64,000 nucleotides of DNA from the IMG/VR virus record IMGVR_UViG_2910903598_000004, positions 32,001 to 96,000 of that record; one strand, given 5' to 3'. Below, piece by piece: positions 2,728-56,373 of this stretch. Position numbers and translations under genes: made by a program. Source of the stretch: a virus (Duplodnaviria > Caudoviricetes). Each line of letters opens with the position of its first letter. The first letter of the stretch is position 1. The notes under the pieces are model-generated. The model was not told where the DNA came from. It ran no database searches and saw only the letters and a list, made by a program, of their open reading frames with translations.

Positions 2728-2880
2728 AAAAATAAAAAATGGCATAAAAATAAGCAGATATTTTATATCTACTCAATTTACACCATTTGGTTTATAAAAT
2801 TTCTATTTTTGTGTTTTCTAAAAAAAGTCACAGTTATATCGGTCTGTGAATCTAATAAAAATACATATTTATTATAACAT
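2728..2880 (-). promoter_or_regulatory. Repeated promoter/structured leader, copy 1 of 8
   Basis: TGTTATAAT; GTATTTTTATTAGATTCACAG-loop-CTGTGACTTTTT; terminal AGTAGATA..TATCTGCT hairpin plus T tract; RBS. Confidence 0.85.
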
Positions 2881-3119
2881 AAAATTTATATAAGAAAAAG
2901 AAGCAGTTAAACAATTTCTGCTTAACCACTTCTTTTCTGCAATCGCCCCAACCTGGAAAATTGAGCGATCATTTTAAATCGTAAATATATCAGGTAACCA
3001 TTATATCGGTAATACCTTTTCTATTACCAGAATATCATTTCAGTCTTTTCATGTCAATGTTTGAATCACATACTACTTTATGTTATTCAATTTTTTAGTT
3101 TTAATATTGATCTAAACTG

Positions 3120-3400
3120 TTAGATACTATTAATGCTATATGCACTTCTAGGTGTCACAATTAATGCATTATAAATATTCTTTTCCATAATACAATCTGA
3201 TCTATCTTTAGCTCCATTTCCTGTGTTATAACGTGGTATTTTTAAAAGTATAAGATCTTCTTTATAATATGTAGGTTTATTACGATATTCAATAATTCCA
3301 ACAAATTCTGAAGGTACACAAAGATAATTAACATCAAAACAAAAATTCATACCACAACCAGATTTAAAATCACCTAATTGATTTCTTTTGTTAATTGCAT
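3120..3400 (-). pseudogene. Frameshifted small hypothetical gene
   Basis: GGAGG-led ATG at 3400 (MQLTKEIN*) stops early; the downstream frame (LGDFKSGCGMNFCFD...) continues to 3120. Confidence 0.5.
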
Positions 3401-3442
3401 ATGTTGCCTCCTGTTCGTGATTCTACACATGTTTTTTCTCAT

Positions 3443-3721
3443 TTATACCTTATATTTTGCAACTGCATCTTCCCAGTTAGCTATGGTACAAACCTTGTCT
3501 ATTTCCTCTGCAATGCGTTCTATTTGCTTAGAAGAAACACAAGGAGTGTTTTTAAAAGCTCTACCTATTGCTAATTTAACATCATCTAAGGTTTTATTTT
3601 TTTTGAGTTTTAAATTATGCCTCCTTAATAAATTCGGCAATTTCTTTTCGCAAACATTACCGTAATTAACAAACCATTCTACCCATAATGCTTCTGCGAA
3701 TATTTCTTGTGGTAATCTCAT
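3443..3721 (-). CDS. Hypothetical protein
   Basis: 92 aa ORF with GAGG RBS. Confidence 0.7.
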   Translation of the reverse strand: MRLPQEIFAEALWVEWFVNYGNVCEKKLPNLLRRHNLKLKKNKTLDDVKLAIGRAFKNTPCVSSKQIERIAEEIDKVCTIANWEDAVAKYKV

Positions 3722-3988
3722 TTTGCACCTCTCAATTCACTTTTGAAAATTCTGCTTCTATAAGAACAATGTACTTTGGCTGTATGAACAATAGTCTCGT
3801 TTCTTTTATTTCTGTTTTAAAAAATATTTCATACGTTTTGTTCTTTCACTTTCTGACATAATGTCTCCTTTCTATATCTATAATCATCAATAGGTTTTCT
3901 TCCTGCCATTATAAACTCCTTTTATTCAATATTGATGGTACAAAAAACAAACAGCAATTTCTGTCTGTTTTTTGTACTATAAATTTTC

Positions 3989-5740
3989 TTAAATTCCAAA
4001 ATCAGCAAATGTTAACTGTGTTGCATTGTCAAGATTAATATTGTTTTTAGAAGCCAGATCCTTGAACTGACTATGACTATTATTAAACTCATATTCATCA
4101 ATAGGTTCGTGAAGATACCCCAGCTGTTTTAATTCAATAAATAATTGATCAAACAGAATAAAGAATCTCTTCCGTTCTTCGCCAGTTGGGTAAGCTGCGA
4201 TCATTCCATCTTCTGTTTCGCATACTACAGAATCTGCATGTCCACACAAATAATCATTTCTTCTTCCAGATTCTTTGAGTTTATCTTTGACATAACATGC
4301 AAATGCACGTGCAAATAATTCAACTTTGCTTTTCCAATATCCATTTTCTGTCTTTGTTGCTCCCTGATCGATTTTTTCAGCATTCATATAAAACTCTGTG
4401 AAAGTATTATCTTCATTTCTGATCAATCTATGGATCAGCGTTTTAAACGATTCTGGAATCGCATCAATTCTAAGCATATTGGTTGCATAGTGACCAACAA
4501 TATGCGAATCTACAATTTTTCCTAAAAAATCATCAAAAGCGTGACCCCATTCATGTGCCAATGATCCGGCCCCACGAAGTTTAGTAAGATTGATAACTTC
4601 TCTTCCTGGTTCATAATGAGCCAAAGCATTTCCATGACCTCTCGCACCAAAAGCGATTCCTAATGCTCCTGTTTCCAAACCTGCCAGTCCGATATCTTCC
4701 CGAGATATTTCTAAAGCATCAGCTAAATCACAAAATGCTTCATATGCCATATTTAAGTTAGCTTGACGGTCTTTGTCATTTGTATAATTTCCAAACTCAC
4801 CGCCGCGAATCTTAAATGCATTCAAGAAATCGTCTCCCACAATATTATGACCATGACGATAATCTTTTCCTTTTCGTTCTATATTTTCCAGCTGTTTTGG
4901 AACTAATTTTTTCTTACCTTTGCGTTTTGTTTTTCTTTTTTCTCCTGCAATTAATAAATCAATCAATGTATCCTTGAATAAAATAACTTCTGGTTTACTT
5001 CCATAAAAAAGAACATCACGACTTTCTTTACATAATAATAAATACTGCCCTTTTTTGATCTCTTCCAGATTAATCTCTTCACTTCTTGAATAGAAAGGAT
5101 ATGTCTTTCCTGATATTTTCCATGCAATGCAAGGTTTTCCTTTTTGAATTCCGAAACGCTCATGTTCAACCTTTACAGTTTCCTCGTCAAATTCTACAAT
5201 ATCGTATTTCTTTGATAAGAATTCCGTTTTTGATAAGCCAAATCCCGTTTTTTCCATCTTCATCTTTAGCCTATCGAGAGCGTCTTTCTCATGAAGCTTT
5301 AGAAATTTGTTCCCGTTAGCAATACCATAGTATGGTACAGCATAGTTATAACGACATGGTCCTGTCTTATAAAGCACTCCTTCTTCGCAAAGAATCTTTT
5401 CCCATGCAAGATTGATATCATCTTCGGTTTTAACCTTCATAACAATATCTCGAATCTTTTCGATTGCCTTGATGTATTCTTTTATGCTAATGTATGTGCG
5501 TTTCATGTCAGGGTAGATACAAGCTCGCATTTCTTTCAACCAGAAAACAATTAATCTCGGATATCCTTTTTCTAATAATTCTTCTGTATCAATCTTTTTC
5601 CAGATATTATCTCGTTTAACATATTTGCGTTTTTCTGCTTCTGTCATTTCAATTGTATCTTCAAAGATCATATTTCTTTCTTTCCAAAGATCCTTTTTGG
5701 CACCGCCAATTTTCTTTCCAAAATCATTTATTTTTTGCAT
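3989..5740 (-). CDS. Polyvalent-protein-type protein with zincin-like metallopeptidase motif and LPD1-like C-terminus
   Basis: N-terminal DFGKKIGGAKKDLW; GEFGNY, GIAFGARG, AHYEP..INLTK..GAGSLAHEWGHAFD (HExxH); ELFARAF..YV..YPTGEER. Confidence 0.8.
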   Translation of the reverse strand: MQKINDFGKKIGGAKKDLWKERNMIFEDTIEMTEAEKRKYVKRDNIWKKIDTEELLEKGYPRLIVFWLKEMRACIYPDMKRTYISIKEYIKAIEKIRDIVMKVKTEDDINLAWEKILCEEGVLYKTGPCRYNYAVPYYGIANGNKFLKLHEKDALDRLKMKMEKTGFGLSKTEFLSKKYDIVEFDEETVKVEHERFGIQKGKPCIAWKISGKTYPFYSRSEEINLEEIKKGQYLLLCKESRDVLFYGSKPEVILFKDTLIDLLIAGEKRKTKRKGKKKLVPKQLENIERKGKDYRHGHNIVGDDFLNAFKIRGGEFGNYTNDKDRQANLNMAYEAFCDLADALEISREDIGLAGLETGALGIAFGARGHGNALAHYEPGREVINLTKLRGAGSLAHEWGHAFDDFLGKIVDSHIVGHYATNMLRIDAIPESFKTLIHRLIRNEDNTFTEFYMNAEKIDQGATKTENGYWKSKVELFARAFACYVKDKLKESGRRNDYLCGHADSVVCETEDGMIAAYPTGEERKRFFILFDQLFIELKQLGYLHEPIDEYEFNNSHSQFKDLASKNNINLDNATQLTFADFGI

Positions 5741-55209: not shown

Positions 55210-55400
55210 TCTTTATCCTTTCCATCCCAATCTTCCGGGATCTTATCATTTTCATTAAATGTCATTGCATTAATAAGTCGGATTGTCATTTTGTGTAGAA
55301 ATGGTATTTTCTCTACTGCCAGAGTTACCGTTCCTAAACCAATAAAAAAAACAGACATAAATGCAACTAAATATACTAAATCGTTTAGCATCTTAATCAT
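55206..55400 (-). CDS. Small membrane protein
   Basis: AGAAAGGAG RBS, one TM. Confidence 0.65.
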   Translation of the reverse strand: MIKMLNDLVYLVAFMSVFFIGLGTVTLAVEKIPFLHKMTIRLINAMTFNENDKIPEDWDGKDKE

Positions 55401-55409
55401 TCTCCTTTC

Positions 55410-55661
55410 TCATAATTCAATAAAATCTTTATTAACGTATAATATAATGCGAAGACAATAGTTATCAGCTACATGCCAGCTTTCTTCATAAACACCATTT
55501 ACTGAACCTTTTTGCACTGCATATTTCTCAACAGTTCCCGCATCTGGCGGTCCAATATGTCCTGTATCTCTGCCGGTTTCCAGAAGTTCCTTCCGGAATT
55601 CCTCACATTTCTGAACAAAGTTACTTACCTCTTTCCTTCCTTGATCAGTCAGTTTTAACAT
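55410..55661 (-). CDS. Hypothetical protein
   Basis: AGGAGG RBS, 83 aa. Confidence 0.7.
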   Translation of the reverse strand: MLKLTDQGRKEVSNFVQKCEEFRKELLETGRDTGHIGPPDAGTVEKYAVQKGSVNGVYEESWHVADNYCLRIILYVNKDFIEL

Positions 55662-56197
55662 ACTTTTTTCCTCCTAATTGTTCGACTTTCTATTACCTCG
55701 ATCCAAAAATCTCGATCATTATTTTTTTGATTATTACTTTCTGCCCATTTACGGTATTCTGTCGGATCTAATCCTAAAAAATCCATAAGTATCTTTCCTG
55801 TACTATGAGTCTGCCAATATTTGATCCAATCATCTAAATCAGCTAGAACAGATTCCCCATCTAAACAGGATTGAATAAACGACTTACTTCGGTATTTCAT
55901 ATTGATGCCTTCTTTTTCATAAAAACATCTTAAATACCCTTTTAAATCATTGTCTTTGTGTTGCAAGCTGGCAGCTATATCAATAATCTGACGATCAATG
56001 TCTCCATATGCTCCACAAAAAATAACCTCAATACGTGTCAGTATCATTTTTTCATCATGCGACAATGTTTTATTGCTTCTCCTAAGATTATGAGCTGTTT
56101 CTGCATATACTCTTAGAGTTTCTGGATCTCGTAATCCGATTTGCAAAAAACCACCATTGTTACAAAATGATTCAACCATGTTTAAGAATTCATCCAT
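55655..56197 (-). CDS. Hypothetical protein
   Basis: C-terminal LDDWI..W.......L.DFLGL...EY..W. Confidence 0.7.
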   Translation of the reverse strand: MDEFLNMVESFCNNGGFLQIGLRDPETLRVYAETAHNLRRSNKTLSHDEKMILTRIEVIFCGAYGDIDRQIIDIAASLQHKDNDLKGYLRCFYEKEGINMKYRSKSFIQSCLDGESVLADLDDWIKYWQTHSTGKILMDFLGLDPTEYRKWAESNNQKNNDRDFWIEVIESRTIRRKKVC

Positions 56198-56219
56198 CCT
56201 CTTCTCTCCTTTCTTAACG

Positions 56220-56373
56220 TAAAAAAGGGCACAAAAAAAACAGACCTTTCGTCTGTTAAATTTGTACCCTTTTATAAATAAAAGTTATTAAGTTTCTTTT
56301 TAAGTATTTTCTATAAAAAGTCCCACTTTTCCTGTTTGGGGAATCTGATAAAAAATACAATTTTATATTATCA
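56220..56373 (-). promoter_or_regulatory. Repeated promoter/structured leader, copy 8 of 8 (heads the dnaX-dnaN-pcrA cluster)
   Basis: TGATAATAT; GTATTTTTTATCAGATTCCC..GGGACTTTTT; AAGGGTACAAA..CAGAC..GTCTG..TTTGTGCCCTTTTTT. Confidence 0.85.

Follow-up and report, generated by a model that had tools for sequence, protein, structure and literature searches.

The DNA analysed here, referred to as the window, is a stretch of 64,000 nucleotides that corresponds to bases 32001-96000 of the IMG/VR record IMGVR_UViG_2910903598_000004 (119,963 bp; G000), which IMG/VR classifies as a virus. Its minus strand carries a repeated leader cassette of about 165 bp (AT-rich, 22-29% GC), located exactly at operon heads. 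All eight copies that an initial annotation had placed on the minus strand of the window were found, while the total proved larger: the record contains 15 full copies, every one on the minus strand and located at 8.6-88 kb, of which seven fall outside the window, and one further copy is cut by the record end, with its terminator half at the contig start. A covariance model built from the eight copies scored the copies at 77-140 bits (E values of 1e-11 to 1e-22); nothing in the rest of the window exceeded 34 bits, and the weaker matches were terminator halves. The region gated by these leaders encodes single-stranded DNA-binding proteins, a clamp and clamp loader, UvrD, topoisomerase III, ERF and YqaJ recombination proteins, methylases, a methylase-helicase polyvalent protein of 1607 aa, PARG, RadC and a ThiF/E2/JAB set, which are functions of the establishment type.

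The units share one order of parts. Behind an extended -10 element come a conserved 5' box and then a hairpin whose stem covaries; a U-rich 3' box and a spacer lead on to a nested double intrinsic terminator, and the last part is a Shine-Dalgarno sequence (SD). The extended -10 (TGnTAnnAT) was present in each of the eight copies, and across the record TGnTAnnnT ends exactly 4 nt ahead of the conserved block in 13 of the 15 copies. In most copies the terminator of the preceding operon lies just upstream, and the unit usually continues into a conserved SD. Within the first ~60 nt of the RNA lie the 5' box, a hairpin that varies in sequence while its pairing is maintained, and the U-rich 3' box. 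Four copies have the 5' box in exact form; in c5, c6 and c8 it is longer by a single T, and that of c3 is degenerate. The spacing between the repeated boxes varies with the length of the hairpin, and the spacer, 25-45 nt long, holds a conserved motif. The analysis recovered the stem pairs, ACTTTTT, the spacer motif AATAGAA, the interrupted hairpin and its T tract, and the ribosome-binding site, all as listed in the initial annotation, and likewise the very strong terminator between promoter and ribosome-binding site, which is nested and has two U tracts. Two of the annotation's descriptions held in part. The 3' hairpin and T tract are present, whereas the single hairpin described is a nested double terminator: an inner hairpin built on the CAGAY/RUCUG core has a U run of its own behind it, this run forms the 3' strand of the outer stem, and a second U tract comes after. 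In the first hairpin, the covarying pairing stood, whereas the outer part, in which the 5' box pairs with the 3' box, reached z values of -3 to -5 in some copies and was at chance level in others, and for this reason we do not regard an outer stem as general. A pairing between spacer motif and U tract was discarded on visual inspection, as its variants show no covariation, and a mini-hairpin overlapping the terminator base was dropped, its stability being about zero.

Covariation was evaluated on 37 distinct copies, reduced to 18 at <90% identity. The results showed that across the 37 copies 90.7% of cells were paired and that 20 of 28 pairs had compensatory changes, compared with 3-6 in slid controls, counts that come from an alignment fitted to the model and therefore favouring structure; the observed covariation values were attained in 0 of 500 shuffles. 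An unfitted MAFFT alignment already contained 5 compensatory pairs in the terminator, and the stem variants are legible directly in the sequences. Folding of the sense strand was favoured over that of its complement by 10.7 kcal/mol (35 of 37 copies), and G-U pairs made up 12.5% of all pairs, indicating structure at the level of RNA, unlike duplex DNA or the template strand. The covariation, which is strong in both hairpins, and the strand bias together bear out the selection on RNA structure that had been proposed from the window. An Frpo-type promoter acting on single-stranded DNA (ssDNA), which the initial annotation had named as a refuting outcome, is not supported, since we found no consistent pairing partner for the -10 in either single strand and the hairpins favour the sense strand. 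Both boxes are conserved beyond what pairing needs. Because they are strictly conserved while their outer pairing is at chance in some copies, their conservation suggests sequence-specific recognition, on RNA or DNA.

The terminators extend well beyond the leaders. In a systematic scan, terminator-like sites numbered 72 for the sense strand, compared with 30 for the antisense strand. The sense-strand sites include the 15 leader terminators, 9 sites just before leader promoters, and 12 that precede internal start codons by no more than 45 nt and leave no space for a promoter. The leader-free part at 88-120 kb has 2 sense-strand sites, compared with about 70 in the gated 0-88 kb. Relatives at 56-69% protein identity have kept the terminator in front of the 1607 aa gene, with compensatory changes, and this gene, in the c7 operon, lies behind three terminators in series. 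Such a layout would call for read-through as the usual route of expression. In Gram-positive conjugation operons, internal terminators together with antitermination guard against spurious transcription, while a licensed polymerase passes (PMC8191782). A stem core of the form CAGAY...RTCTG occurs in nearly all strong terminators (28 sense-strand sites compared with 3.8 expected in the whole record; window examples at 9666-9689, 21378-21392, 28136-28158 and 41846-41867). This common core could reflect shared descent of the terminator modules or recognition by a factor. The coordinates of cassettes and terminators are collected in Table 1.

Table 1. Leader cassettes, parts of the exemplar cassette and terminators, in window positions.
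Feature	Position	Strand	Description
Cassette c1	2715-2879	-	-10 2879-2871; leader RNA 2866-2726; SD; ATG at 2714 (DUF5688 gene); 124.7 bits
Cassette c2	9470-9641	-	-10 9641-9633; leader 9628-9482; SD; 117.3 bits
Cassette c3	12700-12890	-	-10 12890-12882; leader 12883-12721; 5' box degenerate, spacer long; 77.5 bits
Cassette c4	21744-21901	-	-10 21901-21893; leader 21888-21749; SD; ATG at 21743; 115.5 bits
Cassette c5	27900-28091	-	-10 28091-28083; leader 28078-27925; 128.5 bits
Cassette c6	34665-34857	-	-10 34857-34849; leader 34844-34691; near-duplicate of c5 including 40 nt upstream; 140.3 bits
Cassette c7 (exemplar)	42565-42737	-	-10 42737-42729; SD; 133 bits
c7, 5' box	42724-42708	-	
c7, variable hairpin	42707-42682	-	
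c7, 3' box	42681-42668	-	
c7, spacer	42667-42638	-	
c7, nested terminator	42637-42592	-	
c7, U tract	42591-42581	-	followed by SD
Cassette c8	56198-56373	-	-10 56373-56365; leader 56360-56213; SD; ATG at 56197; 115.3 bits
Operon-end terminator	9665-9690	-	just upstream of c2 promoter
Operon-end terminator	2902-2932	-	same class
Operon-end terminator	12921-12945	-	same class
Operon-end terminator	28132-28162	-	same class
Operon-end terminator	34897-34924	-	same class
Operon-end terminator	56413-56441	-	same class
Internal terminator	39793-39836	-	15 bp GC-rich stem, U7; 33 nt before ATG of 1607 aa gene; no room for a promoter
Internal terminator	41840-41873	-	nested like leader terminator; 16 nt before next start codon; c7 operon
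Internal terminator	17278-17305	-	11 bp stem, U6; SD and ATG directly after
Internal terminator	near 1450-1483	-	class of 17278 site
Internal terminator	near 6001-6020	-	class of 17278 site
Internal terminator	near 7704-7731	-	class of 17278 site
Internal terminator	near 21374-21396	-	class of 17278 site
Internal terminator	near 25509-25559	-	class of 17278 site
Internal terminator	near 31965-31989	-	class of 17278 site

Relatives found through the leader motif and the covariance model are 144-222 kb long and carry 15-20 leader copies each; the complete ones, of 200-222 kb, have 16-20. Contigs whose backbone proteins are 56-69% identical retain the leader at orthologous positions, and in those relatives its nucleotide identity was 82-89%, compared with 68-87% for the flanking genes. 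At the c7-orthologous position of one diverged relative (L177:8206-8357) we found a leader of the c5/c6 type, with 84% identity to c6 (window 34691-34844) and 74% to c7 (window 42578-42724). Because the leader type is swapped at this orthologous position, sequence comparison indicates that cassettes are exchanged between operon heads.

Pfam scans of all open reading frames (ORFs) of at least 60 aa in the record detected no capsid, terminase or tail families. In a complete relative (G001), the leader-poor half and the far end encode a VirD4-type coupling protein, a TraG/VirB4-type ATPase, a cell-wall hydrolase, adhesins of the LPXTG, Cna_B, SpaA and TQ types, and pilins, and a tyrosine integrase lies at the far end. 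This content of complete relatives, with genes for conjugation, surface proteins of Gram-positive type and an integrase, indicates that the element is a giant integrative conjugative element (ICE) of a Gram-positive-type host. The host is probably an uncultured Gram-positive bacterium, as judged solely from the Gram-positive surface genes and a GC content of 32%. With 15 leader copies in the record, 15-20 in relatives, and conjugation genes in complete ones, the element-wide regulon on a conjugative element that the initial annotation had put forward agrees with what we found. The topoisomerase of the element has an exact letter-for-letter match in about 1490 blocks of public assembly collections, and the places listed for these matches are all metagenome or sequencing-run assemblies. 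A search with the beta-clamp returned near-identical relatives only. One cassette compared by BLAST with plasmid and phage collections gave no match, although masking by the low-complexity filter is probable for so AT-rich a query. A leader-motif scan of genome contigs gave only four matches of equal length in Flavobacteria, which were judged unrelated, and the leader sequence family was met in this ICE family only.

Several neighbouring features were observed. The leader-free 88-120 kb of the record (window 56400-64000 and beyond) encodes SecY-SecE-SecA, McrBC-like genes, a STAND NTPase and an NA37 nucleoid protein. No telling features were seen in the small genes that come first after the leaders. 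Past the SD of c7 (window 42565-42320) and of c2 (window 9470-9250), about 230-260 nt contain no ORF of at least 60 aa, and in a relative an 89 aa gene follows the c7-orthologous leader; the first gene behind c7 and c2 may be short or decayed. In the complete relative G001, the only leader copy on the plus strand has immediately upstream of it a match to the Rfam family RF02969 (DUF3800-I RNA; L118:1-116, plus strand, = G001:C1:76711-76826; 78.3 bits, gathering score 44.2).

The window gave no match to the leader in Rfam at the gathering score, as expected from the initial proposal of a new family, and a search of 12 leader loci at E<=1 returned none either, unrelated neighbours aside. Among encoded proteins, the record's only strong HTH_3 match is a 195 aa XRE-type helix-turn-helix (HTH) protein (window 14923-15510, minus strand) whose C-terminal half is unassigned; its stop and the start of a 352 aa protein without a family match (13868-14926, minus strand) overlap, and a second HTH_3 ORF (G000:62533-62616) is below the family cut-off. 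The only RNA-binding-type domains seen on the record are an S1 domain in a 301 aa protein (G000:10103-11008, minus strand) and a Phage_ProQ_C_like domain (30.9 bits) in a 145 aa protein (window 23291-23728, minus strand). The XRE-type, S1-domain and ProQ-C-like proteins all lie inside gated operons, and none of them is argued for as a regulatory factor of the leader.

In our preferred interpretation, which we hold with evenly balanced confidence, each cassette would be a terminator-gated promoter, with the 5' hairpin and boxes giving RNA polymerase a licence for processive read-through. The leader RNA would start from an extended -10 promoter of the housekeeping type, and by default transcription would stop at the leader terminator, giving a stable RNA of about 135-150 nt. 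The downstream genes would be expressed only once a polymerase that had transcribed the 5' hairpin and the boxes had turned termination-resistant. The leader would act as a licensing signal of the nut, put or conAn2 type at some 16-20 entry points, and genes for replication, recombination and counter-defence over about 100 kb would be switched together. The licensing factor could be an unrecognised element protein, host elongation factors or the RNA alone, and promoter control via the 5' box could be layered on top. Somewhat more tentatively, falling short of an even chance, we propose that the 5' hairpin and two boxes represent a new class of processive-antitermination licensing RNA, either self-sufficient (put-like) or read by an unrecognised factor, which would act over ~16-20 promoters, make ~100 kb one regulon, and leave unlicensed transcription to be silenced by terminators before nearly every ribosome site.

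A number of observations weigh against this licensing interpretation. No antiterminator candidate was found on the element: a NusG-like protein (PF02357) is absent from the three records searched, where a host copy is possible; ConAn1 (PF17362) had no match at E<=1 in the record and two complete relatives; and sigma factors, CsrA, ANTAR, CAT and ribbon-helix-helix (RHH) proteins had no match in the Pfam scans. The best boxA match scored 7.9 of 13 in the leaders and 8.3 in background windows, and, unlike boxB, the hairpin loop is conserved in neither length nor sequence. Termination and read-through at the leaders are themselves predictions, and a plain leaky terminator would be expected to give the identical sequence picture. 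Moreover, the hairpin would also be transcribed by polymerases that come in from upstream, and the logic would need resistant operon-end terminators.

The strongest competitor, unlikely in our estimate yet to be taken seriously, holds that the promoters are controlled by a repressor: the 5' box (+1 to +16) would be a DNA operator giving zygotic induction, as for Reg576 on p576, with the hairpin stabilising the mRNA end and a leaky terminator damping noise; antitermination would be unnecessary. Hairpins at the 5' terminus are able to stabilise Gram-positive mRNAs, the 5' box stands at an operator-like position and is conserved beyond its pairing, and one XRE-type HTH protein is encoded. An establishment regulon run by a repressor has been documented (PMC6294495, PMC8708921). 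This proposal leaves unexplained the covarying terminators before internal ribosome sites and a nested double terminator of ~20 kcal/mol, and box spacing that depends on hairpin length is unfavourable for phased DNA binding. The HTH gene sits within a gated operon, RHH proteins were missing from the Pfam scans, and the Reg576 heptamer TTATCCC had 5 matches compared with 8 expected, none of them at the cassettes. We regard it as improbable that the short RNA is the main product, that is, that some 16-20 paralogous stable RNAs of ~140 nt act in trans as a sponge for a GGA-binding regulator, as antisense RNAs or as decoys, with the downstream genes served by residual read-through. The architecture, with a hairpin at the 5' end, a single-stranded spacer and a terminator hairpin at the 3' end, is typical of small RNAs, the spacer motif is conserved, and GGA or AGG occurs apically in about 10 of 13 hairpin types (read by eye, uncomputed); against this, every cassette leads into an SD and a gene, the same rule holds for internal terminators that have no promoter or hairpin, the element Pfam scans contained no CsrA gene, and no target complementarity was found.

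A classical single-site attenuator, in which a ligand, an upstream complement or a leader peptide picks the fold, is quite improbable and has been largely refuted in silico, even though promoter, structured leader, terminator and ribosome-binding site form the usual attenuator layout and zipper-type attenuators occur on Gram-positive conjugative plasmids (PMC13401043). Riboswitch, zipper-type and ribosome-mediated attenuation are unlikely because there is no Rfam match, no conserved upstream segment that pairs with the terminator or competing conserved fold, no stable mini-hairpin at the terminator base and no conserved leader peptide, the frame itself not being conserved. The leader terminator is worth 13-26 kcal/mol and the best alternative fold is worse by that amount; the hairpin loops are also too variable for a ligand pocket. 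Processive licensing is likelier than single-site attenuation because further conserved terminators abut ribosome sites within the operons. The least probable proposal, to which we assign hardly any weight, is that the hairpins act on ssDNA during transfer, as Frpo-type promoters or priming sites for the complementary strand. The element is conjugative, the copies in the record all have one orientation, and with DNA parameters the strands differ by just 1-6 kcal/mol. Nevertheless, the extended -10 is of the normal duplex type, at a fixed distance to the conserved block and with no conserved partner, the structure relies on sense-strand G-U pairs, and the cassettes occupy the operon heads precisely, with an SD as their last part.

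Compared with known systems, the leader is a new RNA family and a variant of the known logic of promoter-proximal terminators and antitermination. HK022 put is a structured RNA just downstream of promoters that acts in cis on polymerase without a protein; it consists of two adjacent stem-loops with conserved features, in two copies only. The promoter-proximal structured RNA is alike in the two cases, while no similarity of sequence or structure was evident in a comparison by description only. Lambda N/nut and the rrn antitermination leaders (B. subtilis rrn, PMC13753749) likewise place a promoter-proximal hairpin of free sequence beside a conserved linear box, with terminators after it and in several transcription units, and the downstream terminators are present and conserved in our element. 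The leader differs from both in that its box resembles neither boxA consensus more than background windows do, an N-like protein was not identified, and there are 16-20 copies per element, each with a built-in double terminator; the parallel with the B. subtilis rrn leaders, where a 5' hairpin is followed by boxA, is one of architecture alone. The lambdoid Q system at PR'-tR' and the Pseudomonas aeruginosa AlpA regulon (PMC7969949) likewise run a constitutive-looking promoter into a close intrinsic terminator, with expression if polymerase is made terminator-resistant at the promoter, and an intrinsic terminator shortly downstream of the promoter is what we found at the leaders. Q and AlpA, however, recognise DNA in the stretch from -35 to -10; among the eight aligned copies no columns upstream of the -10 are conserved, hence none in that stretch, and the conserved parts are transcribed and show RNA covariation. 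The Pfam scans revealed no Q- or AlpA-like protein.

conAn (PMC8191782) also belongs to a Gram-positive conjugative element with many internal terminators, where an RNA near the transcript start is proposed to license read-through. conAn2 is a single RNA of ~283 nt after the conAn1 gene, with 20 bp inverted repeats (PMC8191782), whereas our element has a 5' hairpin of ~60 nt in 15-20 copies and lacks PF17362. EGeRS1 and EGeRS2 of pLS20-family plasmids (PMC8708921, PMC6294495) are likewise multi-copy conserved sequences heading establishment-type operons, and EGeRS1 also blocks read-through. EGeRS1 is GC-rich, 400-600 bp long and multi-hairpin, without a sigma-A promoter, in contrast to the short AT-rich cassette with its extended -10; EGeRS2 is a promoter with dual operators for an RHH repressor, of which neither the heptamer at the cassettes nor the protein was seen here. 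RfaH and LoaP differ in that the NusG-like protein of such NusG-paralogue systems is not on the element.

The timing of establishment, replication and counter-defence genes on large Gram-positive conjugative elements is little understood, and the described cases (Reg576, EGeRS1, conAn) are few and mostly from Bacillus plasmids. The leader is a compact, well-defined RNA module with clear covariation, present in about 20 copies per element and kept across diverged relatives. It offers a testable handle on element-wide control by terminator read-through and a bait for a new antitermination factor. If the licensing interpretation is true, about 100 kb of a very widespread conjugative element would form one regulon.

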